Part shown: positions 781 through 53,699 of the stretch, piece by piece
How positions within the stretch are numbered: position 1 is the first letter of the stretch
How the letters are laid out: every line of letters begins with the position of its first letter
Virus record (IMG/VR): IMGVR_UViG_3300048833_000212
Location: 1-54,645 of that record
Length of the DNA stretch: 54,645 nt
Source: a virus
Taxonomy: Duplodnaviria; Caudoviricetes
Direction: 5' to 3' (one strand)
Notes under the pieces: model-generated
Told to the model about the DNA's origin: nothing
The model's input: only the letters and a program-made list of their open reading frames with translations
Databases searched by the model: none
Program-made: the position numbers and the translations under genes

Positions 781-815
781 GCCGCGTGCGCCTTCGATGA
801 ACGATGGAACGAGAC

Positions 816-2935: not shown

Positions 2936-2949
2936 GAAGGAAGACCGAA

Positions 2950-3438: not shown

Positions 3439-3454
3439 ACGAAGGAACAAGCAC

Positions 3455-4668: not shown

Positions 4669-4705
4669 GCTGCCGCTGAGTGACTACAACATCAACAGAG
4701 GAACG

Positions 4706-5080: not shown

Positions 5081-5082
5081 TC

Positions 5083-5490
5083 ATGAGCGACTATCGCGAA
5101 GCGATCCTGGTGGATGAAGACCTCCGTGCGCGGATGATCGAAGGCGGGCAGACGCTCGTGGACGTTTGCCACGGGCTGTCCGTGGAAGGCGGCTGGTGGA
5201 GCGGTCCTGATGCGGACCACCCGCTGATGGTCCCGACCAAGCTGGCACTCATCCACAGCGAGGTCAGCGAGGCGCTGGAAGGCCACCGGAAGAACCTGAA
5301 GGACGATCACCTGCCGCACCACTCGATGCTGGCGGTGGAACTCGCTGACGCGGTGATCCGCATCGGTGACCTCGCTGGCCGCCTGCGCATCCCCCTCGGC
5401 GCAGTCATCCTGGAGAAGCTGCTCTACAACGCGCAGCGCGCAGACCACAAGAAGGAAGCGCGTGAAGGCGAGCAGGGGAAGAAGTTCTGA
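5083..5490 (+). CDS. MazG-like nucleotide pyrophosphohydrolase
   Basis: KLALIHSEVSEALEG..K...ELADAVIRIGD...EKLLYNAQR. Confidence 0.9.
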   Translation: MSDYREAILVDEDLRARMIEGGQTLVDVCHGLSVEGGWWSGPDADHPLMVPTKLALIHSEVSEALEGHRKNLKDDHLPHHSMLAVELADAVIRIGDLAGRLRIPLGAVILEKLLYNAQRADHKKEAREGEQGKKF

Positions 5491-9047: not shown

Positions 9048-9305
9048 ATGAGCAACGACGAAGACATCATGGGCCAGTATGGCGAGGATCGCATCACGGG
9101 CTTCCGTGGGCGCATCACAGGCATTGTGCGCTACATCAGCGGCTGCACCCAGGTGCTGCTGACTCCGAAGGTCGGCACCGATGGGAAGATGCCGGAAGGC
9201 CAGTTCATCGACATCCAGCGCATCAAGGTCGATGAGACGGTGGTGCGCATCATGCTCGACAACGCGCCCACGCCCGGCTTCGATCAGCTGCCGAAGGCGC
9301 GCTGA
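9048..9305 (+). CDS. conserved small phage protein
   Basis: DRITGFRGRITG...YISGC.Q.LLTP motif. Confidence 0.75.
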   Translation: MSNDEDIMGQYGEDRITGFRGRITGIVRYISGCTQVLLTPKVGTDGKMPEGQFIDIQRIKVDETVVRIMLDNAPTPGFDQLPKAR

Positions 9306-10811: not shown

Positions 10812-11125
10812 GCGAGACGAAGAAAAGGCGACAGGTCTTCTGCCGCGTCAAGCACACGAAGGCAGGGACGGACATTGCCCCATGCGATGCACTCTCATCA
10901 GTCCTGATTTATTCGTATGGCGGCGCAGGCGCTAGGCTCGCCACAATGTTCCCATTCACAGATGGCATCCCGCAAGAGGGAAGGAACAAGCGCCTTGTAA
11001 TTGCGCCGACGAAGAAGCAAGGCAAAGGAGTGGTGGCGAACTTCTGCCCGTATTGTGGCGAGCCTCTGACGGAGGGTGGTCGCGGTTTCGTTGCAGAGCA
11101 GGCGAAGCGAAGGTGCAAGGCATGA
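10808..11125 (+). CDS. hypothetical protein with FCPYCG Zn-knuckle
   Basis: ATGA overlaps at both ends. Confidence 0.7.
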   Translation: MSETKKRRQVFCRVKHTKAGTDIAPCDALSSVLIYSYGGAGARLATMFPFTDGIPQEGRNKRLVIAPTKKQGKGVVANFCPYCGEPLTEGGRGFVAEQAKRRCKA

Positions 11126-13200
11126 ACCCCATCGACGCGATCCGCGCCGCACTGATCCCCTCGCGCGTTCAGCAGGTGGGCCAGCAGGCGATTGACGATG
11201 AGATACACGCGCTCATCGCTGCCTTCGACTTCACGAAGTGGATGGTGGGGAGGCTCGATGCCGGAGCGCGCCTGTCCTCCGCTCATGGCTCTTCGCTGCT
11301 CTACTGCGTGGGCCTGGCCGACAATCCCCCGGCGCCGGGGGAGAAGAAGCATATGTGGTTTGACACGACGCTGCCGGACATCGACGTGGACCTGCAGGAC
11401 GATCTTCGCCACCTGACCTTCGCCCACATCGAAGCGACCTATGGGAAGGAGCGGGTGGCGCGCCTCGGAACGGTCGGCACCTTCAAGGCGCGCAGCGCGC
11501 TCCAGGAGGTCGGCATGGCACTCAAAATTCCGAAGTGGGAAACAGATGCTGTGGCTGACCAGATGATCAAGCGATCCTCCGGTGACGCTCGCGCGCAGCT
11601 GACGATCATCGACACGCTGGAGAATATGCCAGCTGGGAAGGACATGCTGAGGGACCATCCCGAAGCGATCATCGTGACGCGCATCGAAGGCCACCCGAAG
11701 AACGCAGGCCAACACGCGGCAGGCGTCGTCATCTCCAATGATGCCATTGATGAGATTGTCGCGGTGGATGCTCGCACAGGTGCTGCTATGTGCGACAAGG
11801 ATGATGCGGAGGGAGCGTATGGCCTCCTGAAGGCGGACATCCTCGGCCTCACGCAGCTGAGTGTCTTCGCGGAGACGCTGGAGCGTGCCGGCCTCCCGCG
11901 CGACTATCTGGACCACGTGCCGTATGACGACAAACTCGCCTTCGTTGTCATCAATGAGCGACGCTACAGCGGTGTGTTCCAGTTTGAGGGAGGCGCGCTG
12001 CAGAGCGTCGCACGCGCTGTGCACATCGACTCATTCAATGACTTCGTCGCGATGACGGCGCTGGCGCGTCCAGGGCCGCTCGCCAGTGGCTCCACCAACG
12101 AGTGGATCAACCGGCGCACAGGGAAGGATCGCGTCACCTATCCGCACGAGATGCTGCAGCCCTACATGGAAGAGACGCTGGGCGTCATCATCTACCAGGA
12201 GCAAATCCTCACCATCGGTCGCGCCGTTGGCGACCTCGACTGGCCTGAGTTGACTGCTCTTCGCAAGGCGATGAGCAAGAGCCTCGGCAAGGAATACTTC
12301 GACAGGTTCGGCAATCCATGGAAGAGCGCCGCGATACGGAAGGGGATGCCGACGCAGGTGGCGGAAGACGTGTGGACTGCGATGTGCGCATATGGATCGT
12401 ATGGCTTCAACAAGTCGCATGCCTACTCGTATGGACTCATCAGCTACTGGTGCGCTCACCTGAAGGCGCGCTATCCGCTGGAGTTCCTGGCGTCCACTCT
12501 CTCGCACACGAGCGACCCAGCGCAGCAGGTGGAACTCCTGCGCGACCTCCTGGCCGAAGGTTATGACTACATCCCCATTGATCCGTCTGTCTCCACCCAC
12601 CGCTGGGAGGTTGCGGAGAGGGAGGGGAAGAAGGTGGTGGTTGGACCTTTGACGGGTGTGCGTGGTATCGGCAGTGTGGCCGTCCAGAAAATCCTGAGCG
12701 CACGCGGCGCCGGGGAGCCGATGCCTGCGCGCTATGCGAAGCTGCTGGAGGCTCCGAAGACTGACATTGACTCGCTGTTCCCGATACGGGATGCGATCCG
12801 GCGCTGCACTCCGGACCTCCGTGAGAAGAACATCCACACGCCTCCCACGATGATCAGCGTGCTGGAGCACATGCCCGACAACAGCGAGGTTCTCATCATT
12901 GGCGTCCTGCTGAAGATCAACCAGCGTGACGAGAATGAGGAAATCAAGATCGCACGGCGCGGTGGGAAGCGCGTGACGGATGGCTTCCTGCTCTCGCTGA
13001 ATTTGAACATCAAGGATGACACCGGCCAGTTCTTCGCGAAGGTTGGCCGCTTCGATTTCGATGTGCTGGGGAAGCGCATCCTGGACCATGGCCGCGCAGG
13101 GAAGGCCATCTGGGCATTGAAGGGAAGGCTCTTCAAGCGCGGCTCCTTCTCAATGCTGACAGTGCGCAACGCGCGCCTCATCGGTGACCTCGATGAGTAG
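11122..13200 (+). CDS. dnaE: DNA polymerase III alpha, C-terminal part (catalytic palm, fingers, HhH, OB)
   Basis: LPDIDVD, GQHAAGVVI, LLKADILGL, GVFQFE, ALARPGPL, IIYQEQ, YGFNKSHA. Confidence 0.95.
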   Translation: MNPIDAIRAALIPSRVQQVGQQAIDDEIHALIAAFDFTKWMVGRLDAGARLSSAHGSSLLYCVGLADNPPAPGEKKHMWFDTTLPDIDVDLQDDLRHLTFAHIEATYGKERVARLGTVGTFKARSALQEVGMALKIPKWETDAVADQMIKRSSGDARAQLTIIDTLENMPAGKDMLRDHPEAIIVTRIEGHPKNAGQHAAGVVISNDAIDEIVAVDARTGAAMCDKDDAEGAYGLLKADILGLTQLSVFAETLERAGLPRDYLDHVPYDDKLAFVVINERRYSGVFQFEGGALQSVARAVHIDSFNDFVAMTALARPGPLASGSTNEWINRRTGKDRVTYPHEMLQPYMEETLGVIIYQEQILTIGRAVGDLDWPELTALRKAMSKSLGKEYFDRFGNPWKSAAIRKGMPTQVAEDVWTAMCAYGSYGFNKSHAYSYGLISYWCAHLKARYPLEFLASTLSHTSDPAQQVELLRDLLAEGYDYIPIDPSVSTHRWEVAEREGKKVVVGPLTGVRGIGSVAVQKILSARGAGEPMPARYAKLLEAPKTDIDSLFPIRDAIRRCTPDLREKNIHTPPTMISVLEHMPDNSEVLIIGVLLKINQRDENEEIKIARRGGKRVTDGFLLSLNLNIKDDTGQFFAKVGRFDFDVLGKRILDHGRAGKAIWALKGRLFKRGSFSMLTVRNARLIGDLDE

Positions 13201-24487: not shown

Positions 24488-24675
24488 AGGGCAGGCGGAG
24501 GTTCCTGGACCCTGCCGAGCAGGAAGCCCAGGAAATCTTCGCCAAGGCGAAGGCGGAGCGCGAGGCGCGCGCCGCACGTCTGGCAAAGATGCGTGACCAG
24601 CATTCGGGTGCAGATCGCGCAGAAGAGCGCGGCACCTATCTGGACAGGGAGATGAGGAATGTCCGCCGCCCGTGA
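24484..24675 (+). CDS. small hypothetical protein before the portal
   Basis: GTGA overlap; ends TYLDREM. Confidence 0.6.
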
Positions 24676-27253
24676 CGGTCTTCGCGGCGCCGCGTCGCGG
24701 GCTGTGTCTGCTCTTCGTCGCTCGCTCCTGAATGGCATCGGTCGCCTGCCGCAGTCCTTCCCTGTCAACTGGTGGCAGCTGGGGATGGATGCCAACATTG
24801 GCGGCGGGTCGCCTGCGATGGAGGCGTGCGTCAGCGCCATCTCGCAGACACTCGCCTCGCTCCCCATCGAGCACTGGCAGAAGGATGCGGATGGCGGCCA
24901 GACGCTGCTGACGAATAGCGTCGCAGCGCGCGTGCTCCGCCGCCCGAACAACTACCAGACGCGCGCAGACTTCTTCCTGAACCTCTCCCGCAATGAACTG
25001 CTGGAGGGGAATGGCTATGCCGTCGCGCTGGACAATGGCGACTTCCAGATTGAAAGCCTCCACATCGCTTCGTCGCCCACGACGATGCCGATGGTGGCGC
25101 CTGATGGAACGGTCTTCTACAACGTCGCACTGTCTGACATTGGCGCCGGCATCTTCAAGCAGCCGACGATCATGGTGCCGCAGGAGCGCATGCTGCACAT
25201 TCGGATGCAGACGCCACGGCACCCGCTGATCGGTGAGTCGCCAATCGTCGCAGCCGCACTCGCTGTCTCTTCTGGCGAGGCGATCCAGGCCCACCTGGCA
25301 GCGTTCTTCAAGAACATGTCCCGTCCATCCGGCTATCTGAAGGTGCCCGGCACCATCAGGGCGGAGGTCGGTGAGAAGCTGCGCGAGGAATGGCAGAAAG
25401 CATTCAGCGCTGGCGGCGCCGGGCGGGTGGCTGTCCTCCAGCAGGGGCTGGAGTGGACCTCGCTCACGATGAACGCAGTGGACGCTGCACTCATCGACAG
25501 CTACAAGATGACGGTGTCCGATATTGCGCGCGTCTATCGCGTGCCGCTCGCCATCATCGGAGAGAGTGGCGGCACAACCTATGCGAACACCGAGACGCTG
25601 ATCAACCACTGGCTGGCCACCGGCCTGTCATATGTGGTGGAGCACATCGAACTCGCGCTGGATCGTCTCTTCAATCTGCCGCCTGACCAGTTCATCTCCT
25701 TCGATCTGGATGCGCTGCTGCGCTCCGATTTCGCAGCGCGTGTCGATGCTCTGACGAAGGGCATCAGCGGAGGTCTGTTCAGCCCCAACGAAGCGCGTGG
25801 CCGGGAAGGCCTGCGGCGTGCGACGGCAGGCGATGAGCCGCGCCTCCAGGCGCAGGTTGTGCCGCTGTCCTTCGCGACGATGACCAACAAGCCTGCGGCG
25901 CCATCGATGCCTTCGGCTCCTGCTGCAGGGAAGGAAATCGAAGAGCATCTGACGCGCGCTCTGGACACTGCGCTGAACGAGTTTGGCGAAGCACTCACCC
26001 TGGCGACGGAAGAACTGCGCACGGAGGCGAAAGCCTTCATGACGAAGGATGAGGGTGCGCTGCTGGAGGCGCGTCTCGCAGCCGCCACTGCGGAGCGCGC
26101 GACCTCCGCCATGACCGCCATCAACGAGATGATGGCGCGCTTCATCGATGGCGCCATGCGCACCCCTCCACAAGGGGAGCGCGGCCTGCCGGGTGAGCGC
26201 GGTGAGAAGGGCGATCCAGGGGAGCGCGGGGAGCGTGGTGACCTTGGGGAGCGCGGGGAGAAGGGGGAGGCTGGCGAGCGAGGGGCTGACGGCGCGCCAG
26301 GGATGGCCGGGGAGCCTGGTCCGAAGGGCGAGCCGGGGGAGAGGGGCGCGCCGGGGGAGAAGGGTGCGGACGGGCTTCCCGGCCCAGCCGGGGAGAAGGG
26401 TGAGCGCGGGGAGCGCGGGGAGCCGGGTGAGCGCGGCCTGGACGGCGCGCCAGGGATGGCCGGGGAGCCTGGTCTGAAGGGCGAGACAGGGGAGAGGGGC
26501 GCACCGGGTGCAGACGGGCTTCCTGGCCCAGCCGGGGAGCGCGGGGAGAAGGGTGAGCGCGGGGAGCCGGGTGAGCGCGGGGAGCGCGGCGCTGATGGCT
26601 CCTTCGCGAGCGTCAGCACCTGGAAGCCGGATCATGTCTGGCGCGGTGCTGGTCACCTCGTGATCCATGAGTCGAGCACCTGGACTGCTGTGGCTGATCC
26701 CGAAGGCGCGGCGCCGGGGAGTGATGACCGCTGGCGCTGCGTCGCTGCCGGCATCTCTTCCATCCAGGCAGAGCAGGATGCGGACGATCCACGCATCATC
26801 ACGCTGGGCTTCCGTCTCGGCGCGACCGAAGTGCATGAGATGCGCTTCGCAATCCCTGCGCTGGTGTTCCGTGGGCTCTTCGATCAGTCGAAGAGTTACA
26901 GCATTGGCGATGTCGTGACCTTCAACGGGAGCAGCTGGGCTGCGCTGCGCGAGGTCGCAGGCGACATGCCGGGGAACTCCGATGCGTGGGCCCTGTCTGC
27001 CAAGCACGGTCGCGTGGGCCGCACAGGCGAACAGGGAGCCATTGGCCCAGCCGGTCCTGCCGGCGCCGTGGGCCCTGCCGCTGCAGGCATCATCGAGATG
27101 ATGGTGGAAGATGGATCGCTTGTCGTCATGATGAGCGATGGGGACGTGAAGACGATCCCCATTCCAGAGTTCACGCAAATGCGCAGTCGCCTCGACAGCA
27201 TTGAGCGTTGGCTGGGTGATGCATATGCGCGACGCGAGAGGGGAACCGAGTGA
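24659..27253 (+). CDS. HK97-family portal fused to collagen-like and CBM-like domains
   Basis: [38 protein letters not shown]; 47 G-X-Y triplets; [14 protein letters not shown]. Confidence 0.9.
26174..26599 (+). repeat. collagen-like Gly-X-Y coding repeat
   Basis: 47 uninterrupted triplets ([12 protein letters not shown]...). Confidence 0.95.
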
Positions 27254-43650: not shown

Positions 43651-43869
43651 CTAGGCGCCCACCCTAGGCCGGTCCCGGTCCAGCCTCAGAAGAGCCTCCG
43701 CCCGGCGCCCATCCCCGGCTGCGATCCGGAGCGCGACCTCAGCGAGGTCGCCCAGCCGCACCGCGTGCCGGTTGTCTTCCGGCTTCCGCCCGGCAGCACG
43801 GATGGCGTCATTCATCTCGATGCTGGCCGACACGAGCGCATCGGCCAGAGCGTCGATGTTTGTCGTCAT
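43651..43869 (-). CDS. hypothetical protein
   Basis: ATGA overlap with the helicase stop. Confidence 0.6.
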   Translation of the reverse strand: MTTNIDALADALVSASIEMNDAIRAAGRKPEDNRHAVRLGDLAEVALRIAAGDGRRAEALLRLDRDRPRVGA

Positions 43870-45305
43870 GACTCCCAGTCTTCATCTTCCAGGATGCGGA
43901 GGATGTCCGGCATCGCCATCGCAGCGATGGTCGCTCCATCGACATAGGACTGGAGGGTGCGCGCATCGAAGGATCGTGCGGCCACGAGGTCCGTGTAATT
44001 GACGACACCAACAGTGCCGAGACGGTGGATGCGATCCTCGCTCTGCCAGCGCGCGATGGCGCCAGGCACGTGCGAATAGTAGATGGCGTCATTGCAGCCA
44101 CCCTGCAGGTTCAGCCCGGCTCCACCCGCCTTCGGGTTGGAGACGAAGAACCTGATGCTTGGGTCGGTGAGGAAGCGAGCCTTCGCCACCTCACGGTTCT
44201 TGTCATTCGTCTCGCCATCATAGCGCACAGCCTGCTCGCCAAGCACGTCCATCAGCAGGGAGATGTCGTCACGGAAGCGTGCCCATATGGCGATCTTCCC
44301 CTCTGTGGCTTCGATCTTCTCCATCAGCGCCGCCATCCGTGGGTTGCGCAGCGGATCATCGAACAAGCGGTGTATCTTCCCCGCCTCATCCTTCACGAAG
44401 CCGCTGGCAACTTGCGAGATGCGGGTGAAGGCGACAGCAGCATTGGCAGCACTCACGACCTCGCCACTGCGGATGGCCGATGCCATCCCCTTCTTCAGCG
44501 TCTTGATCATTGCCAGCTGCTCGGCTGTTAGGTCGAAGTGCCACTTGCCTCGCATCTTCGCTTCGATGCCGGCCTGGTCCTTCGTGAAGTGCGCGATGTA
44601 TGGCGCCGTCTTCTCCTTCCACCGCGCGACATTCCGATGGCCGATGATTTCCCGGTTCTCAAATCCGCCCATGATGCAATACTCGCGGCGGAAGTGCGTG
44701 ACGTATTGGATGCCGATGATGGTGGGGTCCAGGAATAGGAACTGCGCCCACTCTTCCTCCAGGCTCTTCGCGAGCGGAGTGCCAGTCATGATCACGCGAT
44801 GGCTGACCATCGCTCCCAGCCGCCTCGCCTCCTTCGCGCGGCGGCTGCGTGGGTTCTTGATCGTCTGGCTCTCATCGATGATGATGAGCACGCGACCTTT
44901 GTGGAGGTCGATGAACTGCTTGGCGATGTTGAAGCCATTCGCGCTGGCGCTGATCGCGTCGATGTTCATGGAGAGAAACCGGAGCGAGTTCCCCGGCGCC
45001 GCGCTCTCAGGGAGTTTCTTCACAGGCCATTCGATCCCCACGAAGGGGAGAGGCGCGTGGACGGGCAGCTGCTCGCGTATCCACTGGCGATGGACTCCCT
45101 TCAGCGAGAGGATGAGCACGCCAGTGATGACTCCCTCTGCCCAGCGGATGAAGGAGAGGTCAATGCCCACCTTCGTCTTCCCCAGGCCTTGTTCAAAGAA
45201 GACTGCGAAGTGCCGTTGCTTCCGCGCCTTCTCAAGCGCGTCCACCTGCCAGAATTTTCCCGGCACCTTCTCCACGAATGGGATCGCATCTTCAATCATC
45301 ATCAC
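43866..45305 (-). CDS. SNF2-family helicase
   Basis: EQGLGKT, IIDESQTIKN, MTGTP, GGAGLNL, QSEDRIHRLG. Confidence 0.93.
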   Translation of the reverse strand: MMMIEDAIPFVEKVPGKFWQVDALEKARKQRHFAVFFEQGLGKTKVGIDLSFIRWAEGVITGVLILSLKGVHRQWIREQLPVHAPLPFVGIEWPVKKLPESAAPGNSLRFLSMNIDAISASANGFNIAKQFIDLHKGRVLIIIDESQTIKNPRSRRAKEARRLGAMVSHRVIMTGTPLAKSLEEEWAQFLFLDPTIIGIQYVTHFRREYCIMGGFENREIIGHRNVARWKEKTAPYIAHFTKDQAGIEAKMRGKWHFDLTAEQLAMIKTLKKGMASAIRSGEVVSAANAAVAFTRISQVASGFVKDEAGKIHRLFDDPLRNPRMAALMEKIEATEGKIAIWARFRDDISLLMDVLGEQAVRYDGETNDKNREVAKARFLTDPSIRFFVSNPKAGGAGLNLQGGCNDAIYYSHVPGAIARWQSEDRIHRLGTVGVVNYTDLVAARSFDARTLQSYVDGATIAAMAMPDILRILEDEDWES

Positions 45306-45396
45306 TCTCGCTTGGCAGGTGGGGAGAGGATCGCCGCAACGGTCCTCACCTCACCTGCCTGGATCGCTCCAGGCAGGCTGGCCGTGAAGGCGAAGG

Positions 45397-45696
45397 TCAC
45401 TTCACCTTCACGAACTCGTGGGCGACATCCCAGTTCAAATCCTGGGACCGGCCACCCTTCTTGATGTAGTCCTCATACACGATCCCCGGATTGCGCATGA
45501 TGATCGCGTGCGACTTGAAGCCGGTGGAGTTGGGACGGCGCGGGTTGGCCTCGCACGTGCTGGTCAGCGTCTTCCCCGCATGGGCGGAGGGACGCCCGGT
45601 GCCGGTGGCCTTCGCCTTCGGTGCCGCCTTCGGTGCCGCCTTCGGTGCCGCCTTCGCCTTCGGCGCCGTCTTCTTTGTCGTGGTGACTTTCGCCAT
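45397..45696 (-). CDS. basic protein: H1-like KAAP repeats + small C-terminal domain
   Basis: KAAP repeats; NPRR...PGIVYEDY...GG...DL.WD; AGGAG RBS. Confidence 0.8.
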   Translation of the reverse strand: MAKVTTTKKTAPKAKAAPKAAPKAAPKAKATGTGRPSAHAGKTLTSTCEANPRRPNSTGFKSHAIIMRNPGIVYEDYIKKGGRSQDLNWDVAHEFVKVK

Positions 45697-45717
45697 TGTA
45701 GTCTCTCCTGCTGTCTG

Positions 45718-45742
45718 GTCCCTGGCGGGATGCCAGGGACCG
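45718..45742 (-). terminator. intergenic hairpin
   Basis: GGTCCCTGGC...GCCAGGGACC 10-bp stem. Confidence 0.45.
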
Positions 45743-45756
45743 GGTGGTGGCCTGCG

Positions 45757-46383
45757 TCAGGCCTTCTTCGGCTCGCTCACCAGAACGTGCCCGAACTTGA
45801 TGTCCCAGCGGAGGTCCACATTGCGACCTCCCGCCGCGATGAAGTCTTCATACTTGATGCCCGGCTTCTGGAGGATGATCTCCATGCTGTTGAATCCGTG
45901 CGACGGATTGCGCCGGTGGTTCTTGTCCTTCACCGCCTTCAGCGTCATGCCGGTGAACTCCGCGACCTTCCCCCGCTTCGCCCCGCCAGCCGCCTTCAGT
46001 GCTGCCTTCTCCGCAGCCTTCTCCGCCTTCACCCGCGCGCGCTCCGCCTTCGCAGTGGTGGCCGCCACCGTCGCCTCCGCGACCTTCGCTGCGATGGAGC
46101 CGGTGACCTTCGTGGTCTTCTCCTTCGGCTGCGTGTTGGCCTCCAGATCGGCCGCAGCCTTCTCCACCGCCTTCGCCGGCACCGCCGCCTTCAGCGTCTC
46201 GGTGATCTTCGCGATCCGCTTCATGGCGGTGGCACGGTCGGTGAACTTGTTCACTTCCGGCTCACCCAGCATCTTCGCCATCGCGTTGTAGAGGTTCACG
46301 ATGCCCTTCATGTTCGCGGTGGCGGTCAAGCCTTCCGCTTCCACGATGCAGTCACCCGCTTCCTGCGCATCAATCTTCGCCAT
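45757..46383 (-). CDS. Lys/Ala-rich protein with the same C-terminal domain
   Basis: LYN...VNKFTDRATA..RI N-domain; PGIKYEDF..GG..VDLRWD. Confidence 0.8.
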   Translation of the reverse strand: MAKIDAQEAGDCIVEAEGLTATANMKGIVNLYNAMAKMLGEPEVNKFTDRATAMKRIAKITETLKAAVPAKAVEKAAADLEANTQPKEKTTKVTGSIAAKVAEATVAATTAKAERARVKAEKAAEKAALKAAGGAKRGKVAEFTGMTLKAVKDKNHRRNPSHGFNSMEIILQKPGIKYEDFIAAGGRNVDLRWDIKFGHVLVSEPKKA

Positions 46384-46462
46384 GTCACTCGCTCCATGAT
46401 GGCGCCGTCCCTCGGCGCCGTGGTGATGATAACTGAGCAGCACATGCTGCCCAGGCAGTTGA

Positions 46463-47419
46463 CTACTCGGCCAGCTTCAGCAGAAGCGTCTGGGCCATCG
46501 CCTTCTTCGTGCGCAGATCACCGACCCACGACCGTGCCAGCCGCGACTCAGCGGAGGTCGATGCGATGTGATCGCTCCAGAACGTGATACCGTTCATCAC
46601 GCCCCACGCATCCCCCGGAGTTGCGCCCGGTCCATTCACGATGGCGCCGATCAGCTGCTGAAGAACCTTCGGCTGATTCTCCGGCTGCATGATCACTGCC
46701 GCCAGCTCATTGTCCTCGATGATGTCCGGGAAGAAGGTCGGCAGCAGCACCTTGTTGACCGCATCCTCCAGCCCCAGCTTCGTCTTCGCCAGCAGCCGCG
46801 CATTCGCCTCATGCTGGCCGAAGGCTTCGTTGGCCAGCGCCAGCTGGAGCCGCGCCGCATTGAAGTCGAAAGCCTTCATGTGGTTCTGGCGATACTCCAC
46901 CGAGCCTTCGTTCATCGCGGCCATCATGGTGTTCATGCACACCACACGCACGCTCGTGGTGGAGAGCAGCGAAGCCTTCCCCACGATGTGGGGCGAAGTG
47001 AACAGGACGTATCCCTTCACCCTGTCGCCCTTCCGCACTTCAAACTCCCGGTTGAGGCGCATCAGCCCCCAGATGATCTCACCACCACGCAGTGAGCCGG
47101 CAGTCTCCAGCGCCGCGCCTCCCGCCTTCGCATACTCCCCCATGAACTCCAGCACGTCAGTGTTCTGGATCGGCGCCCACGCTTCGCCAGTGATGGTCAT
47201 CATCTTCTGGTCGCTGTCGCGCACGAGCGCATACTTGTTGTTGGCACGATAGACCTCGCCATCCGTGCCCTGGAAAAACATCGGCTGCTTCGTCACCATC
47301 CAGTCGATGCCAGCCGCCTTCGCCATCTCGGCAGGCGTGACCAGACCTTCGACCTTCGTGCCCTGGCCATGCCACGGCGTCTCACCGGCATATGCCATCG
47401 TCTCAACTTCAGAACTCAT
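46463..47419 (-). CDS. DUF932/DUF945-family protein
   Basis: ETMAYAGETPWHG.G, AGIDW.V, PIQN, ETAGSLRGG, VRVVCMNT, AWG..N.IT...DH. Confidence 0.9.
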   Translation of the reverse strand: MSSEVETMAYAGETPWHGQGTKVEGLVTPAEMAKAAGIDWMVTKQPMFFQGTDGEVYRANNKYALVRDSDQKMMTITGEAWAPIQNTDVLEFMGEYAKAGGAALETAGSLRGGEIIWGLMRLNREFEVRKGDRVKGYVLFTSPHIVGKASLLSTTSVRVVCMNTMMAAMNEGSVEYRQNHMKAFDFNAARLQLALANEAFGQHEANARLLAKTKLGLEDAVNKVLLPTFFPDIIEDNELAAVIMQPENQPKVLQQLIGAIVNGPGATPGDAWGVMNGITFWSDHIASTSAESRLARSWVGDLRTKKAMAQTLLLKLAE

Positions 47420-47441
47420 CACCGTCATTCCTTCTTCATCG

Positions 47442-47470
47442 ACCGTGCCTGTTCCTCCGGAAAAAGGGAA
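47442..47470 (-). promoter_or_regulatory. putative promoter TTCCCT-N17-CACGGT
   Basis: Same motif family; upstream of the DUF932 RBS. Confidence 0.5.
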
Positions 47471-47499
47471 GCCCCAAAATCCAGTCGGCACAAGTGCTG

Positions 47500-47579
47500 C
47501 ATTTGAGCTGGCTCATCAGCGGAGGATGCTCATGTCTCCGGACCTCCCCCGGCGCCGCGATGCCAGGGAGGGTTTCGCC
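47500..47579 (-). ncRNA. type II hammerhead ribozyme with loop I-3' tail pseudoknot
   Basis: ggc-GAAA-stem III-GUC^-cggag[acaugagcauc]cuccg-CUGAUGA-gcc-agcucaaaug; predicted cut 47541/47540. Confidence 0.9.
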
Positions 47580-48020
47580 TTATGTGACGTATTGATATGA
47601 CCTGCTCTTCTCCGTGGGCACCCACAGGTATCCGCGACCGCCAACCCCTTGTGGCTTGTTGTTCCCTTCAACAAGCCCCATCAGCTTAAGATCATTGAGC
47701 GTCCCAGACACATTCCCCTCAAAGCCAGGCAAAGACCTTGACAGCTGCTGCTTGATCTCCCTGCTTCCAATCCCGTTTGGGTTCGCAGCGACAACGCGCA
47801 GGACAGCCTCACGCTGACGGTTTGTGACGCGGGGATCAGGGCTGCGGCGCTTCTCCCTTTGTGCTGCCGCCACCGGAGCCGCCACCGGAGCCGCCACCGG
47901 AGCCGCCACTGGCATTGCTGTCCCGTCAGCGAAGATCATCACTGACGTGTTGTCAGGGAAAATCCAGTCACCTTTCGTGACAAGGTGGATGACCTCATGC
48001 TTCTTAAAAGTTTCGCTCAT
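47580..48020 (-). CDS. protein with PVAA repeats and a probable C-terminal winged helix
   Basis: VLRVV..NP.GI.S.EI...VSGTLNDLK..GLV; AAGGA RBS. Confidence 0.7.
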   Translation of the reverse strand: MSETFKKHEVIHLVTKGDWIFPDNTSVMIFADGTAMPVAAPVAAPVAAPVAAAQREKRRSPDPRVTNRQREAVLRVVAANPNGIGSREIKQQLSRSLPGFEGNVSGTLNDLKLMGLVEGNNKPQGVGGRGYLWVPTEKSRSYQYVT

Positions 48021-48247
48021 CACTTCGTTCCTTCGTTCATGTTGCGTTCGCTCGCGAGCCGCAGCGCGGCTTTCGCTTTGGATGGCAGCTTCCGCACTGC
48101 GCGGAAATCGCCTGGGGTGGATAAGAAGAAGATCGTCACACCGCTGCTGTGGACGATACGCAAGTGGTTGGTCGATGTCCGTCCATCGACCTTCCATCCT
48201 TCGCCCAAGGTCTTCTCAACCTCAGTGAAGAATTTACGGACGCCCAT
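48020..48247 (-). CDS. HicA-like small protein
   Basis: GWKV....NHLRIVH..G..I...STPGD.R pattern. Confidence 0.55.
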   Translation of the reverse strand: MGVRKFFTEVEKTLGEGWKVDGRTSTNHLRIVHSSGVTIFFLSTPGDFRAVRKLPSKAKAALRLASERNMNEGTK

Positions 48248-48540
48248 CAGCGCCTCCTGCTGTAGTGGGTCCTGTGGCGAGGATAGGCGCGGCAGTGGTA
48301 GCAGAACACCGGCTCCACCGGAGCCTCCAGCCATGCGCGGTATCGGTCTGCGGAGCCGCGTGCCACGCAGGCCTCCATCGTCTCTCCGTCGCGGATGCCT
48401 CCGGCACCGCGTGGCGTGGCAGTGTAGCAGTCCAGGGATCGCGCCTCCGCCGCGAAGCGCCGTCCCAGCGGCGTGTCCGGTCCTGGCGTCCCGCAATGTG
48501 CGAGTGCCAGGAGAGTAAGGAGCATGAGCGCGCGCTTCAC
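48247..48540 (-). CDS. predicted lipoprotein
   Basis: MKRALMLLTLLALAHC signal and lipobox-like Cys. Confidence 0.6.
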   Translation of the reverse strand: MKRALMLLTLLALAHCGTPGPDTPLGRRFAAEARSLDCYTATPRGAGGIRDGETMEACVARGSADRYRAWLEAPVEPVFCYHCRAYPRHRTHYSRRR

Positions 48541-48902
48541 AGCGTGTTGCTCATACAGAAGGTGAAGGCGCGCTGCTCGGCTCCTGCTGAGGTGCGCGTC
48601 TCATATCCGATGGCGCTGGCAGCGCGGATGCGGAGGCGCACTGCCTCGCTGCTTCCGTTCCGCCGCGCCTGTGCGTCATTGATCGCCTGGAGCGATGCCA
48701 GGGGAACTCCCCGCAGCTTCGCATCGAAGGCGGAAGCCGCGATGGCTCCCAAGGCGCGGCAGATACGCTCCCGCTGGCTTGCGGTGGGCGCTGAGGCTGC
48801 GCTAGAGGGAGGGACAGGCGAGGGTGCGGGAGCAGGGAACACCCCGCTCGCGCCCCACGCTACGGCCAGCAAGGTCGCACTGGCCAGCAGCATCGTCTTC
48901 AT
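48537..48902 (-). CDS. exported hypothetical protein
   Basis: Signal peptide, Pro-rich linker, two Cys. Confidence 0.65.
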   Translation of the reverse strand: MKTMLLASATLLAVAWGASGVFPAPAPSPVPPSSAASAPTASQRERICRALGAIAASAFDAKLRGVPLASLQAINDAQARRNGSSEAVRLRIRAASAIGYETRTSAGAEQRAFTFCMSNTL

Positions 48903-48905
48903 GGC

Positions 48906-49100
48906 TCAGCCTCCCGCGCTGTAGGGCGAGACGCTGACCAGCACCGTCTTACCGCCAGTGGCGCTGTTCATGCACCGCACGTAGTCTTCGGCCTGCTTCT
49001 GCGCATCGGCAGGCGAGGCTGCAGTGATGATCTTCCCCGGCATGTTCTTCGGCGCGCCACCGAGCAGCTGGTTGGTCGTGTGGATGATGTAATAGTTCAT
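48906..49100 (-). CDS. hypothetical protein (MNYYIIH...)
   Basis: AAGGA RBS directly after a ribozyme. Confidence 0.7.
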   Translation of the reverse strand: MNYYIIHTTNQLLGGAPKNMPGKIITAASPADAQKQAEDYVRCMNSATGGKTVLVSVSPYSAGG

Positions 49101-49118
49101 GACTCGTTCCTTCGTGGT

Positions 49119-49185
49119 TGGCTCATCAGGTGGGGTCATCCCCACGACCTTCGCGGCGCCGGGGGAGCGCCGCTAGGTTTCGCCA
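49119..49185 (-). ncRNA. type II hammerhead ribozyme
   Basis: uggc-GAAA-ccuagcggcgc..gcgccgcgaag-GUC^-gugggg-auga-ccccac-CUGAUGA-gcca; cut 49146/49145. Confidence 0.92.
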
Positions 49186-49356
49186 TCAGTGTGTCTTCCC
49201 TGTCACCATCTGCCCGATGATGAAGCGCGTCATGTCGTTTATGAACATGATGTGGTCTGCGCTCTTCGGCTCTTCGCTGAGGATCGCTCGCATGTGGGCA
49301 CGATATGCGCGCGCCTCCTTCGCGGCTGCGTCGCGCGCAGTCTTGTCCTCCAGCAT
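49186..49356 (-). CDS. hypothetical protein (56 aa)
   Basis: GGAGG RBS; the stop abuts the ribozyme. Confidence 0.65.
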   Translation of the reverse strand: MLEDKTARDAAAKEARAYRAHMRAILSEEPKSADHIMFINDMTRFIIGQMVTGKTH

Positions 49357-49766
49357 CACGCAGCCTCCTTCGCCAGCGCGATCTTCTCTGCGAAGGGAAG
49401 CGCGCTCCACTCCTTCTTCTCTTCGGTGCTCAGGCCGCAGTAGCTGTCGAAGCATCCGAGGTTCACCACGCAGTCTGCGATGTCGTCTGCGCCCATCTCA
49501 TCCGCGCCATCGATGTCGAATGCGATTGCGTTCCAGACGCGCGAGCATGCCTGGATGAAAGTCTTTCGGTCAGTAAGCCTTCTGGCCCACTCGCAGACGA
49601 TCTTGAACTCATCGCCAAGATCGTTGGCGGCCCATCCGCCATTGTTGTCCCATGGGTCAAGCCGTGTGACCGTCGCCCACTCTCGCGGCCCATCTCCTGA
49701 CAGGCTCAACGGATAGGAAATGCGATCCCCAACCGCAAGACCGTAGTGCCGCCCGTTTCTGCACAT
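49356..49766 (-). CDS. hypothetical protein
   Basis: GGAGG RBS; TGATG overlaps. Confidence 0.7.
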   Translation of the reverse strand: MCRNGRHYGLAVGDRISYPLSLSGDGPREWATVTRLDPWDNNGGWAANDLGDEFKIVCEWARRLTDRKTFIQACSRVWNAIAFDIDGADEMGADDIADCVVNLGCFDSYCGLSTEEKKEWSALPFAEKIALAKEAA

Positions 49767-50017
49767 CACGCAGCCTCCATCATCTCGGCGCGGAACTCCC
49801 AGAGGTCTTGCGCCTCATTGAAGGAGAAGTGCCGCACGATCCAGTCTGCGCACTCGGTGCTGGTGGCCGTCATCGCCCACCGTCCCTTCGTGCCGTAGAA
49901 ATCCTTGTGGGACTCATACACCCACTCGCGCAGGCTGTCGTGAAGGTCGCGCTCTTCGCCCTGCGCAGCCTCCAACAAGCGCACGCGATCCTTCGCCTGC
50001 TTCTCATCCAACACCAT
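49766..50017 (-). CDS. hypothetical protein (MVLDEKQ...)
   Basis: AAGGAG RBS after a ribozyme; YESHKDFYG.K.R motif. Confidence 0.7.
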   Translation of the reverse strand: MVLDEKQAKDRVRLLEAAQGEERDLHDSLREWVYESHKDFYGTKGRWAMTATSTECADWIVRHFSFNEAQDLWEFRAEMMEAA

Positions 50018-50031
50018 CGTCTCGCTCCTTC

Positions 50032-50099
50032 GGCTCATCAGGTGGGGTCCATCCCCACGACGCTCCCCGGAACCTCGCGGCGCCAGGGAGCGTTTCGCC
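50032..50099 (-). ncRNA. type II hammerhead ribozyme
   Basis: ggc-GAAA-cgcuccc...ggggagc-GUC^-gugggg-augga-ccccac-CUGAUGA-gcc; cut 50059/50058. Confidence 0.93.
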
Positions 50100-50100
50100 A

Positions 50101-50325
50101 TCAGTCGTCGCCTGCTTCCTTCGGCACGATCTTTGCGCCAGCACCGAAGCCTTCGGTGATCACCTTCCCATCCGGCTCGCAGGCGATCTTCACGCCATGG
50201 ATGCTGACCACGAGAGGTCGCGACTGGAACACGATGCCGACCTGCCGCAGCGTCTCCTTTCCGCGCTTCCACACGAGCGTGACACTCATGCCGTATTTGA
50301 ATTTGAGGTCGCTGCCGATTGCCAT
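50101..50325 (-). CDS. hypothetical protein (MAIGSD...)
   Basis: AGGAGG RBS; the stop abuts the ribozyme. Confidence 0.7.
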   Translation of the reverse strand: MAIGSDLKFKYGMSVTLVWKRGKETLRQVGIVFQSRPLVVSIHGVKIACEPDGKVITEGFGAGAKIVPKEAGDD

Positions 50326-50621
50326 CACGCGACCTCCTGCGTGGAGAGAGGGATCACCGACTGATAGAGGCTCCACGCGAGCCACCGACCGCCAGTGCGC
50401 TTCCGGACCTCCGCCAGCAGAGCGTCCCAGGTCATGCCCGTCTCCCCCTCCACTTCTGCGATGGCGTCCAGCACCACGCGATCCACGCCGCCATATGCGA
50501 GCGTAGCGCACTCACTCGGCGCGTGGAAAGCAGCCATGTCTTCGCTGATGTCTGCCATCAGCTGGATCGCCTGCTCATTCGCGCGCCACACGCGACCGAA
50601 AGCCGCGCCAAGGTTCATCAT
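50325..50621 (-). CDS. hypothetical protein
   Basis: GGAG RBS; TGATG overlap. Confidence 0.7.
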   Translation of the reverse strand: MMNLGAAFGRVWRANEQAIQLMADISEDMAAFHAPSECATLAYGGVDRVVLDAIAEVEGETGMTWDALLAEVRKRTGGRWLAWSLYQSVIPLSTQEVA

Positions 50622-50635
50622 CACTCTCACTCCGT

Positions 50636-51025
50636 TCAGGTCTTGATGCGGTTCAGGATGCGGGTGAACTCGCGAAGGAGTTCCCCGCGCGCTTCTGTCT
50701 TCGCAGCCTCCAGCGCGTTGGAGAAGATGTCAGTGCTGCCAGAGGTCGCATTGCAGGCGGAGGTCAGCAGGCGATCCGACAAGTGGGCCACCGTCTCGCG
50801 CGCCGTCGCGATCATCGCATCATCATCCTCCATGCAGTGAGGGTCGAAGCGATAGAGTTCATCAGCAGTGAACTGCGCGACGGCCAGACGGCGCGTGTCG
50901 CTCCAGTCAAGCCTTCCACCATCTGCCAGCGCCTCGCTCATCGCCTTCGCGCGGCTCAAGGCTTCGTCTCGCGCACCCTCGACATTGGCGAGGATCATCT
51001 GCGCAGCGCGGCTCTTCGTCTTCAT
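50636..51025 (-). CDS. hypothetical protein (MKTKSRAA...)
   Basis: AAGGA RBS after a ribozyme. Confidence 0.7.
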   Translation of the reverse strand: MKTKSRAAQMILANVEGARDEALSRAKAMSEALADGGRLDWSDTRRLAVAQFTADELYRFDPHCMEDDDAMIATARETVAHLSDRLLTSACNATSGSTDIFSNALEAAKTEARGELLREFTRILNRIKT

Positions 51026-51039
51026 CGTCTCGTTCCTTC

Positions 51040-51107
51040 GGCTCATCAGGTGGGGTCCATCCCCACGACGCTCCCCGGAACCTCGCGGCGCCGGGGAGCG
51101 TTTCGCC
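51040..51107 (-). ncRNA. type II hammerhead ribozyme
   Basis: Near-identical to the 50032 copy; cut 51067/51066. Confidence 0.93.
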
Positions 51108-51109
51108 AT

Positions 51110-51850
51110 TCACTTGAGCAGGCCTGCGGTCTTCGTCGCAGCAGGCTTCTTGTCGGCGCCAACCGACATCGTCAGCTGCGCCTTCGCGCCGTGCTCCCGC
51201 CCGGCTTCGCTCGCTGCCGAGTAGCGGTTCACCGTCACAGCCTTGCGCGGCTTCGCCAGCTTCACGTTGTTGTCCACCCAGGCCTGCGCAGCCGACATCT
51301 TCGCCTCATAGAGGTTGACGACCACGAGCGCACGCCCATCGCTCTCAGCGGTGCCGCCTTCCTTCGCCTGCTTGATGAGTTCCTTGCAGCGCCAGTAGAT
51401 CGTCTTGGCTGCCGCATTCGTGAAGTCGGTGCGCGCGCGAGCCGCAGTCAGCTGCATGTTCGCCTTCGCAGCGATCAGCGCGCCAGCCCACACGCCGCTC
51501 AAGATCATCTTCGCGACCGAGTGTGCGACCTCCACATCTGCGCGCGTCCCCACGAAGGTCACGATCAGCGTCTGCGACGGGGAGCGGGTCCAGTAGAATT
51601 TGCAGAAGTAAAGTTCAGCGATGGCGGAGCAAATCCAGCGCGACCACGGGCTGGTGTTGAACTTGTAGCCAAAGGTCGCAGCGTCCACCGTCTCTTCCAC
51701 CGCATCGTCGCCTGCGATGTCAGCCTGGCTGAGGTTGTGCTCCAAGAGCATCGCGTGCGCCTTCGCCAGCGCGCTCTGGCGCTCCGCTTCGCTGCTGTTG
51801 TTGTTGGCGAGCGCCAGCAGCTTGCGAATGCGGTCAATCGTCTTTTCCAT
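51110..51850 (-). CDS. DUF2786-domain protein
   Basis: IDRIRKLLALA....SEAE...ALAKA..MLLEHNLS; FVG...DVE.A; G...G. Confidence 0.85.
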   Translation of the reverse strand: MEKTIDRIRKLLALANNNSSEAERQSALAKAHAMLLEHNLSQADIAGDDAVEETVDAATFGYKFNTSPWSRWICSAIAELYFCKFYWTRSPSQTLIVTFVGTRADVEVAHSVAKMILSGVWAGALIAAKANMQLTAARARTDFTNAAAKTIYWRCKELIKQAKEGGTAESDGRALVVVNLYEAKMSAAQAWVDNNVKLAKPRKAVTVNRYSAASEAGREHGAKAQLTMSVGADKKPAATKTAGLLK

Positions 51851-51868
51851 CTCAGTCTCCTTCGTGTG

Positions 51869-51933
51869 GGCTCATCAGGTGGGGTCCATCCCCACGACAC
51901 ATCCCTGCTCCTGGGAGCAGGGAGTGTTTCGCC
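51869..51933 (-). ncRNA. type II hammerhead ribozyme
   Basis: ggc-GAAA-cacucccugcuc..gagcagggaugu-GUC^-gugggg-augga-ccccac-CUGAUGA-gcc; cut 51896/51895. Confidence 0.93.
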
Positions 51934-51935
51934 AT

Positions 51936-52160
51936 TCACTTCCGCGCGCGGCGCGGCTTCGTCGTGGTCACGTTCCCGTGGGCGATGTCCCAGCGGACAT
52001 CGACCGGGCGGCCACCCTTCGCCACAAAGTCTTCGTAGGTGATGCCAGGGTTGCGGAGGATGATCTTCATGGAGTGGAAGCCGCAGCTGTCCTTCCGGCG
52101 CGGGTTGGTCGCGACGGTCGGAAAGAGCGGCTTGGAAGCAATGGAAGAGATGCGGGCCAT
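51936..52160 (-). CDS. stand-alone copy of the small domain found in 45397 and 45757 (74 aa)
   Basis: NPRRKDSCGFHSMKIILRNPGITYEDFVAKGGRPVDVRWD. Confidence 0.8.
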   Translation of the reverse strand: MARISSIASKPLFPTVATNPRRKDSCGFHSMKIILRNPGITYEDFVAKGGRPVDVRWDIAHGNVTTTKPRRARK

Positions 52161-52179
52161 TGTCGTGTTCCTTCGTGTG

Positions 52180-52232
52180 GGCTCATCAGGTGGGGTCCAT
52201 CCCCACGACGCTCCAATGCGGAGCGTTTCGCC
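52180..52232 (-). ncRNA. type II hammerhead ribozyme (shortest copy)
   Basis: ggc-GAAA-cgcucc-gcauu-ggagc-GUC^-gugggg-augga-ccccac-CUGAUGA-gcc; cut 52207/52206. Confidence 0.93.
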
Positions 52233-52234
52233 AT

Positions 52235-52381
52235 TCACTTCGCAGCGCGCCTCTCAGCAGCGCGCGCTTCCTTCAGCTGCTCACGCAGCTTCGCGACCCG
52301 GCGCAGCAGCGCCTCTGTCGGATAGGAAGCGGCGTGGATGCGTGCGGTTAAGAGGCGCGCTGCAATCGTCTTCGCGTTCAT
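52235..52381 (-). CDS. 48-aa basic helical peptide (not in the ORF track)
   Basis: MNAKTIAARLLTARIHAASYPTEALLRRVAKLREQLKEARAAERRAAK*; AAGGA RBS; bracketed by two ribozymes. Confidence 0.7.
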   Translation of the reverse strand: MNAKTIAARLLTARIHAASYPTEALLRRVAKLREQLKEARAAERRAAK

Positions 52382-52396
52382 CGTCGTGTTCCTTTG

Positions 52397-52459
52397 GACT
52401 CATCAGGCGAGGTCTATCCCCGCGACCTTCGCGGCGCCGAGGCGCCGCTAGGTTTCGTC
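52397..52459 (-). ncRNA. type II hammerhead ribozyme (first in the transcript)
   Basis: gac-GAAA-ccuagcggcgcc-uc-ggcgccgcgaag-GUC^-gcgggg-auaga-ccucgc-CUGAUGA-guc; compensatory changes in stems I and II; cut 52424/52423. Confidence 0.92.
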
Positions 52460-52800
52460 GTTGTTTTTGTTTGGTTGAGAAGACCTGGGGTTAACCTTCC
52501 GAGCGTCGCTGCTGTCTCCGTCTCCTTCCCCTGTGGGTGCGCCTCCCGGCGCTCCTTTCTGGTAGGAAGATCGGCGCATGCTTCGCCTTCTTCTCTGGGT
52601 TCGCTCCGGTGGGTCGCTTCCTCTCCCAGGCTCTTCCGCCGCAGGGGTTAGAGGGTCGCTCTCCGAAACTACTAGCCGGTCAACTACCGGCCGGTTTTTT
52701 CGTCGCTCTTCGGTCCCTTCCGGGAGCCTGCGACGGGGAACCGTATCCCCGCTTCGCTACTCAGCGCCTCCTGGGGATCAGCCCCACCGCGTTTCGCCAG
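52460..52800 (-). ncRNA. candidate structured leader RNA
   Basis: About 340 nt without a convincing gene; several short stems, two capped by GNRA loops; lies between the putative promoter and the first hammerhead. Confidence 0.4.
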
Positions 52801-52803
52801 ACC

Positions 52804-52832
52804 TTTATCGTCCAGCGCCTGGAGGAAGGGAA
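52804..52832 (-). promoter_or_regulatory. putative leftward promoter TTCCCT-N17-GATAAA
   Basis: Same motif family; heads the minus-strand arm. Confidence 0.5.
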
Positions 52833-53338
52833 GCAGGAAAAGTGATGGAACCCAAAAAATTTTTGCATAGAGAGGAACGCGCGCGCGGCTTCTGCAGAAG
52901 GCTCCCTGCCCGGCCACCGGGAGAGGTCGCACCCGGCTCCCCTCCGATGGGCGCCGGGGAGGCGCACCCGGCTCCCCTCCCTCCGGTGGGGTCCGGACCT
53001 CGCACCCCACCCCTCGCCCATCCCTGCCCAGCCGCGCCCCATTCCAGGGGAGGGAGGGGAGGCGACGAAAGCGGACACCCACAGGAATGGGCTAGGATGG
53101 GCGCCTAGGCCTGTCTCCCGGTTCCGCACAAGATCGTATGTCCCACGCTCCGAAAACCAGCCTAGCACCCCTCCCTGAAGATGTGAAATCTATTCTTGCA
53201 ATTACTGCATTGTTACGATCCGTTTTCAGTATTGGCTGCAAGAACTCGTGCAGTATTGGAAGAACTCATCAAGTGAAAGAAGGCTGGTGAAAGGTCTAAA
53301 TAATTAGTTCATCCAGTTTGACTTTCCTTATCTTCCCC

Positions 53339-53545
53339 AGATCATTCCGGCTCCCAAAGGCATGTCGGGCTGGAGCCGGATCATTCTTGCAGCGGGCTGA
53401 CCGACCTTCCGCCAGAGGATCATTCCTCCAGCGTCCCAGGTTCCCTTCTGGCAGAGGATCATTCTTGCAGCGGGCTGACCGACCTTCCGCCAAAGGATCA
53501 TTCCTCCAGCGGCTGGACCTTCGACCTTTTGCCAGAGGATCATTC
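53339..53545. repeat. tandem array of six GATCATTC-anchored units, period 39 (once 42) bp
   Basis: Anchors at 53339, 53378, 53417, 53456, 53495, 53537; units 2 and 4 are nearly identical. Confidence 0.9.
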
Positions 53546-53699
53546 TGCTGGTAGTGTGAACTGGCTCCCCACCGCGACGATCCCCCGGCGCCGCGATGGC
53601 GATGCTGGCAGTCACCGGCTCTTCGATGATGGGCGGAGACTTTACTGAACATGTCATGAATAGTTGAAGAACTGTTTCACCAGCACCAGGAAAACCAGC

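Follow-up and report, generated by a model that had tools for sequence, protein, structure and literature searches.

We describe an array of self-cleaving hammerhead ribozymes in IMG/VR virus record IMGVR_UViG_3300048833_000212, whose entire length of 54,645 nt was analyzed and is called the window below. With its direct terminal repeats, the record represents a tailed-phage genome of 54.6 kb in complete form. Seven type II hammerheads (HH1 to HH7, numbered in the direction of transcription) were found within 4.9 kb by a descriptor script and by reading of the strand; all are located in intergenic spacers and all are on the minus strand. We propose, with a probability of about 0.7, that the minus strand from 52.4 to 43.9 kb is one operon and that the seven hammerheads would cut its transcript into hairpin-ended units with short 5' untranslated regions (5' UTRs), thereby uncoupling the stability and translation of the units. 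We first present what was observed directly: the motifs, where they are placed, how far they are conserved at orthologous junctions and how general the layout is.

Seven type II hammerheads and a related array

The seven elements are as follows. The position given after "cut before" is the first nucleotide of the predicted 3' product on the minus strand, and MFE denotes the minimum-free-energy structure of the isolated slice.

52397 to 52459, minus strand: HH1, type II hammerhead in the untranslated leader; cut before 52423; stem II GAC/GUC; weak type I match (19.2 bits)
52180 to 52232, minus strand: HH2, type II hammerhead; cut before 52206; RF02276, 37.4 bits; canonical MFE
51869 to 51933, minus strand: HH3, type II hammerhead; cut before 51895; RF02276, 22.0 bits; canonical MFE, z -4.17; intact core
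51040 to 51107, minus strand: HH4, type II hammerhead; cut before 51066; RF02276, 32.5 bits; canonical MFE
50032 to 50099, minus strand: HH5, type II hammerhead; cut before 50058; RF02276, 32.1 bits; canonical MFE
49120 to 49184, minus strand: HH6, type II hammerhead; cut before 49145; core and stems intact by descriptor; canonical MFE
47510 to 47579, minus strand: HH7, type II hammerhead after the last small gene; cut before 47540; RF02276, 28.8 bits; found by descriptor

CUGAUGA, GAAA, the A15.1-U16.1 pair and the C at the cleavage position are present in 7/7 elements, and Watson-Crick pairs adjoin the core in all three stems of each. Stems I and III are capped and stem II is open throughout, which is the type II topology. 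Stem II is 3-4 bp and stem I is 5-6 bp in length, and stem III has at least 3 closing pairs. Against the seven found by the descriptor in the window, 100 shuffles that preserved dinucleotides gave 0.07 on average and never more than 1. When the whole window was scanned with Rfam at gathering thresholds, one type II match was returned (52175-52233, 37.4 bits; the gathering score of RF02276 is 37 bits), so that HH2 is the only one of the seven to reach that score. A permissive scan of 46500-53500 gave RF02276 matches to five of the seven (37.4, 32.5, 32.1, 28.8, and 22.0 bits), the four additional ones lying at 22.0-32.5 bits. In the same scan HH1 gave only a weak type I match (52370-52412, 19.2 bits) and HH6 (approximately 49120-49184) gave no Rfam match, though its core is intact by the descriptor.

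The canonical three-way junction was the MFE for five of the seven isolated slices (HH2 to HH6). The folded slice of HH1 ended short of stem II, with stems I and III visible in the fold, and the MFE of the HH7 slice was not canonical. Four of the window hammerheads have an identical stem I, the loop I of HH6 is one base shorter than that of HH2 to HH5, and the stem I of HH7 differs from those of the other window elements. The exact string of stem I plus core had no other match in IMG/VR. An eighth CTGATGA at 50859-50865 was rejected as a hammerhead; it lies inside an open reading frame (ORF) and has no hammerhead context.

One related phage contig (L001) was found, in which the DUF2786 protein is 66% identical to that of the window. 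It carries nine RF02276 matches, 5/9 of which reach the gathering score, and a tenth element is cut by the contig end. The only genes common to the two phages are those for a 74-aa protein and for the DUF2786 protein, and in both phages hammerheads are found before, between and after these two genes (HH2 to HH4 in the window). Stems I and III have diverged between the window and L001 yet are still paired. When 14 hammerheads were aligned with MAFFT, the variable length of stem III led to its misalignment, and RNAalifold returned no more than stem II and a part of stem I; stem covariation was read instead from core-anchored pair tables of 16 elements. In these tables pair 1 of stem I is GC in 6, CG in 5 and UA in 5, and pair 3 of stem III is GC in 12, CG in 3 and AU in 1. 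The 3' strand of stem II is GUC in the first element of both phages; for the first L001 element, the descriptor and Rfam leave two possible 5' boundaries.

The intact cores and compensatory stem changes indicate selection on the ribozyme itself, and this bears on an alternative in which the stop-to-start cassette is mainly a recombination module that spreads by duplication or gene conversion and shuffles early genes, cleavage being secondary. Such a module is compatible with processing, and as the principal explanation we regard it as improbable. Several observations fit it: over 87 nt, from the start codon to the stop region, HH4 and HH5 have 98% identity, while the flanking genes are unrelated; stem I is identical in four hammerheads; the window and L001 share the 74-aa and DUF2786 genes only, and their DNA homology (L001 5678-6690 to window 52134-51164) ends inside the hammerhead-bounded block; and gene content varies among arrays. 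The near-identity of HH4 and HH5 together with the four identical stems I points to recent cassette duplication or gene conversion in this lineage. Apart from the selection on the ribozyme, the argument against a general recombination role comes from the survey described below, in which stem I was identical within a source in only 15/352 pairs, most of them from the window and L001. Since such identity is rare, homogeneity characterizes this lineage rather than arrays at large.

Stop-to-start units and their generality

The hammerheads delimit six fragments (F1 to F6), preceded by a leader and followed by a distal product. The sequence-only reading had given fragment sizes of 217, 311, 829, 1008, 913, and 1605 nt, and these were reproduced exactly from the predicted cut sites. 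Three points of that description were corrected: F1 to F3 contain one ORF each, F4 and F5 contain three each and F6 contains four; upstream of HH1 there is an untranslated leader and no gene; and the third concerns the UTR after HH7 (see below).

52460 to 53330, minus strand: GC-rich untranslated leader ahead of HH1, predicted to be removed when HH1 cuts
52235 to 52381, minus strand: F1 ORF, 48 aa, no known family
51936 to 52160, minus strand: F2 ORF, 74 aa, homologue in L001, no Pfam family
51110 to 51850, minus strand: F3 ORF, 246 aa, DUF2786 + DUF7168, 66% identical to L001 6001-6693
50101 to 51025, minus strand: F4, three ORFs (129, ~98, and 74 aa), no known family
49186 to 50017, minus strand: F5, three ORFs (83, 136, and ~56 aa) with ATGA-type stop/start overlaps, no known family
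47580 to 49100, minus strand: F6, four ORFs (64, 121, 97, and 205 aa), no Pfam family
43866 to 47540, minus strand: distal product after HH7, with DUF932/TIGR03299, a 228-aa ORF, a 99-aa ORF and a SNF2-type helicase; no further hammerhead

Each internal unit has the order stop codon, hammerhead, Shine-Dalgarno sequence and ATG. The stop codon ends 0-2 nt ahead of the stem II GGC strand in 6/6 internal units, and an ATG lies 41-46 nt past the cut in 6/7 window hammerheads. F1 to F6 would begin directly at the stem I hairpin, with no overhang; CUGAUGA, a Shine-Dalgarno sequence of the GAAGGA type and ATG come next, and each fragment would close with the stem III hairpin and one unpaired C. The order of hairpins, CUGAUGA, Shine-Dalgarno sequence and start codon is that given by the sequence-only reading. 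Its estimate of about 40-45 nt for the 5' UTR compares with cut-to-ATG distances of 42, 46, 45, 41, 41, and 45 nt. HH7 lacks the standard UTR, since the next likely start codon, that of the DUF932 gene, is about 121 nt away. In F4 to F6 the stop and start codons of successive ORFs overlap or are adjacent. Among all ORFs of F1 to F6, just one belongs to a Pfam family (DUF2786 + DUF7168); ORF 50101-50325, for instance, had none. In F4 and F5 an AUG within the CUGAUGA core (51046 and 50038) is in frame with the first ORF with no intervening stop; the ATG preceded by the Shine-Dalgarno sequence 21 nt downstream of the core AUG is the more likely start.

We asked how general this layout is. A pattern scan of IMG/VR found the motif in at least 119 stretches, and the same pattern was present in at least 120 stretches of bacterial genomes from many phyla. 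The survey set comprised the window and loci L001-L120, and all survey counts in this text are among the matches listed; the descriptor gave 252 hammerheads in 115 sources. These loci were retrieved with a GGC/GCC stem II pattern, and some descriptor matches may be false. In sources with at least four hammerheads, all elements were on one strand (20/20). The spacing between hammerheads had a median of 598 nt (10th-90th percentile, 275-1595 nt). Stem II measured 2 bp in 12 elements, 3 bp in 125, 4 bp in 105, 5 bp in 9 and 6 bp in 1.

The layout was judged for 245 of the 252 hammerheads, seven being too near a locus end. An upstream ORF was defined as one of at least 30 codons that ends at the ribozyme, and a downstream start as a Shine-Dalgarno sequence plus start codon within 90 nt; 4900 same-strand positions served as the random control. 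A stop-abutted upstream ORF was present at 177/245 hammerheads (16% at random positions) and a downstream Shine-Dalgarno sequence and start at 201/245 (33% at random). Both features were found together at 152/245, or 62%, compared with 5.7% at random, an approximately elevenfold enrichment. Among 179 hammerheads with an upstream ORF, the distance from the end of the stop codon to the stem II strand was -1 to 5 nt in 162.

Proposed processing into hairpin-ended messages and the alternatives

In the proposed mechanism each ribozyme would fold during transcription and cut after its own GUC. The HH1 cut would remove the long structured leader, and the cuts at HH2 to HH7 would split the remainder into six RNAs of one to four cistrons and a distal RNA of 3.7 kb. 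Because stem II, the open helix, is outermost in the type II topology, a hairpin would be left on both products. On the upstream product the stem III hairpin would be followed by one unpaired C bearing a 2',3'-cyclic phosphate; the downstream product would start with a 5'-OH and the stem I hairpin, with no unpaired base, followed by an A/G-rich single-stranded Shine-Dalgarno stretch. Every unit would have a blunt hairpin at either end and a short 5' UTR common to all, and its stability and translation would be uncoupled from those of its neighbours and of the leader. Type II is the sole hammerhead topology that leaves a terminal hairpin on both products, and this may be why it is common at gene junctions. 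In silico, insulation was hinted at only weakly: for the six fragments, the mean unpaired probability of the ribosome-binding site was 0.55-0.75 in the cleaved form and 0.35-0.77 when 200 nt of upstream context was included (n = 6).

Several points weigh against this proposal. Cleavage of the window elements is predicted from the sequence; that it happens in vivo, like any consequence for half-life or translation, is inferred. A pseudoknot between loop I and the 3' tail, typical of type II hammerheads, is missing from HH1 to HH6: their loop I is 4-5 nt and their best helix at most 2 bp, whereas HH7 can form 5 bp, the L001 elements 4-6 bp (9/9) and 145/252 of the surveyed elements at least 4 bp. 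Without the pseudoknot, HH1 to HH6 might cleave slowly at cellular Mg2+ or only conditionally. The stop codon adjoins stem II, and a ribosome terminating there would sit on the 5' half of the ribozyme before cleavage and on its 3' hairpin afterwards. Nor does each gene form a unit of its own, since three of the six fragments are polycistronic. Stabilization of an mRNA by a 5'-OH depends on the RNases of the host: after glmS ribozyme cleavage, for example, the 5'-OH product is broken down by RNase J1.

Some of these points would equally suit an alternative in which cleavage is conditional or down-regulating. Slow hammerheads lacking the pseudoknot, their folding blocked by terminating ribosomes, would report upstream translation or the Mg2+ or growth state, and the cut might trigger decay. 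The usual tertiary pseudoknot is missing in 6/7 window elements, and with the stop codon -1 to 5 nt from the stem II strand (162/179), a ribosome and the ribozyme fold would be mutually exclusive at these abutting stop codons. Perreault et al. (2011; PMC3088659) also considered that slower phage variants may be regulated. However, the stems have remained paired despite divergence, as expected of any active ribozyme, and the flush hairpin ends favour protection over decay. We consider conditional cleavage unlikely as the main role.

The leader raises a further alternative. It extends over several hundred nt ahead of HH1 with no conserved ORF (no ORF in 52460-53330 is common with L001), and a scan for sigma-70-like promoters upstream of HH1 found none. 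A hairpin at 52657-52702, with a counterpart at L001 3165-3209, has a conserved 7-nt loop and a compensatory stem change and lies about 250 nt upstream of the first hammerhead. Read on the plus strand, the same hairpin is terminator-like and is followed by a T run. If Rho or 5'-end-dependent nucleases load on the leader or an upstream cistron, a cut in the nascent RNA could part them from the polymerase and thus insulate the operon from polarity. Rho action needs RNA continuity, and the position of the leader before HH1 fits this idea. Such a role seems very unlikely.

The sequence-only reading had also suggested that the two ends of one fragment could rebuild a hammerhead and give circular mRNAs. 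In that scenario the ends would re-form a chimeric hammerhead via stem II and be sealed by the reverse reaction or by host RtcB into translatable circles. Compatible halves are present in 6/6 fragments (five by GGC with GCC, and F1 through G-U). In a two-piece fold of the last 60 nt and the first 45 nt of each fragment, the chimeric canonical junction was the MFE for 4/6 fragments, with a gain of -2.1 to -8.7 kcal/mol; given a stem II of 3-4 bp, re-association would be possible but weak. The hammerhead end chemistry, 5'-OH and 2',3'-cyclic phosphate, is known to suit RtcB. RNA ends tend to lie near each other, and together with the compatible halves this makes a circular mRNA physically possible. 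Against it, only the 3-4 bp stem II links the ends, with no extended complementarity of the kind found in viroid-like RNAs. For successive hammerheads in the survey, 87/135 pairs could pair at 3/3 positions, but only 9/57 could where a strand departs from GGC/GCC, which argues that cross-compatibility follows from the family consensus and is not kept by selection. The window phage has no RtcB, RNA_ligase, RNA_lig_T4_1 or AAA_33 match, and RtcB was found in only 7/14 isolate genomes with such hammerheads. Footprints of the terminating and initiating ribosomes would probably cover both halves. Circular or spliced products were sought by Perreault et al. (2011; PMC3088659), who state, with data not shown, that none was detected, and our literature searches returned no report of circular mRNAs from phage hammerhead arrays. 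Linked by so short a helix, with a compatibility that is not selected and no ligase or kinase match in the phage, the circles are highly improbable.

A connection of these RNA ends to a Pnk-like phosphatase, also raised from the sequence, was not borne out. ORF 4192-4668 encodes a lone HAD_PNKP phosphatase domain among nucleotide-metabolism genes, with no kinase or ligase match; of a T4 Pnkp-type healing and sealing set, no AAA_33 kinase, RtcB, RNA_ligase or RNA_lig_T4_1 match was found in the phage, and the ORF that follows the HAD_PNKP gene has no P-loop. The surrounding cluster (804-5490) contains an HD 5'-deoxynucleotidase-like gene, ThyX, the lone HAD_PNKP phosphatase, a match to the C-terminal part of PHROG 4889 and a MazG-like pyrophosphatase.

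The processing of the operon transcript into hairpin-ended units remains our preferred reading. Taken as a whole, the sequence-only interpretation is partly supported, and in outline it had already been published.

Genome context and comparison with known systems

Genes for TerL, a portal protein, a prohead protease, tail proteins, ThyX and an RNase T-like exonuclease are present in the window. It also encodes a DNA polymerase III alpha that is split over two ORFs (9305-10414 and 11053-13200), with the NTPase domain divided between both; the approximately 640 nt between them contain an ORF with a weak zinc-ribbon match. The portal protein (24659-27253) has C-terminal collagen-like repeats and a weak CBM_5_12 match. 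At 53378-53553 there are four head-to-tail repeats of about 39-42 nt (61-98% identity to the reference copy), which adjoin the only AT-rich stretch, upstream of the leader of the hammerhead operon; they are candidate operator or iteron sites. In the distal product, the DUF932/TIGR03299 gene (46463-47491) after HH7 has homologues in four other hammerhead-bearing IMG/VR loci (L048, L024, L031, and L003), and in L048 the homologue is located just 3' of a hammerhead on the same strand. Two segments paralogous to the 74-aa F2 protein occur in genes downstream of HH7 (45757-46443 and 45397-45696). A blastn search of the array region against cultured phages gave no match. No relatives of the DUF2786 protein were confirmed in bacterial genomes, its homologues in cultured phages are all below 33% identity, and these searches named no host.

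The phage hammerhead array and both of its interpretations, processing and circles, have been in print since 2011. Natural type II hammerheads, with their pseudoknot joining loop I to the tail, were reported by Perreault et al. (2011; PMC3088659), who proposed that long phage transcripts are cut into single-gene or operon-length mRNAs. In the same report tandem prophage hammerheads cleaved in vitro, and those of A. tumefaciens cleaved in vivo. The prophage clusters described there resemble the window array in that several hammerheads, including type II elements, lie on the coding strand and flank single phage genes or short blocks of them; the array described here differs in that it belongs to a complete uncultured phage genome and has seven elements, six of them without the loop I-tail pseudoknot. 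To the 2011 description the present survey adds the consistency of the strand, the approximately gene-length spacing and the wedging of the elements between stop codon and ribosome-binding site. According to a 2019 review, the biological role of phage hammerhead arrays was still undefined and more work was needed. The window phage and L001 provide a compact test case: a 5 kb operon with seven ribozymes, stop-to-start cassettes and diverged orthologous junctions.

HHphage of haloviruses HF1 and HF2 is similar in that a mapped 5' end lies near the cleavage site, and differs in that the archaeal virus has a single element, a variant that depends on salt (Perreault et al., 2011; PMC3088659). The type II hammerheads of Desulfovibrio vulgaris, for which cyPhyRNA-seq showed cleavage in vivo, are likewise near phage-like genes; as reported, they form three separate loci and no array (PMC8782182).

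Viroid-like RNAs and retrozymes share with the predicted fragments the hammerhead 5'-OH and 2',3'-cyclic phosphate ends, which can be joined by a ligase. In those RNAs extensive self-complementarity holds the ends together, and most are non-coding. In the window fragments only a 3-4 bp helix would join the ends, and the RNAs are mRNAs.

The sequence-only reading had likened the elements to natural RiboJ insulators. At the sequence level the likeness stands: the elements are genuine type II hammerheads, the predicted products have hairpin ends, and HH1 would remove a leader. The processing reading behind it is the part that was already published in 2011. RiboJ also removes upstream RNA and leaves a standard 5' UTR that begins with a hairpin, as HH1 would do on a natural leader; it differs in being derived from sTRSV, in having an added 23-nt hairpin and in being used once per gene (Clifton et al., 2018; PMC6206723). 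It raised transcript abundance about twofold, and the terminal hairpin was suggested as the cause (PMC6206723). If end protection holds for the window array as well, its elements would be natural, ready-made insulator parts. In contrast to RiboJ, they are of type II and are iterated, and each would also set the 3' end of the preceding RNA.

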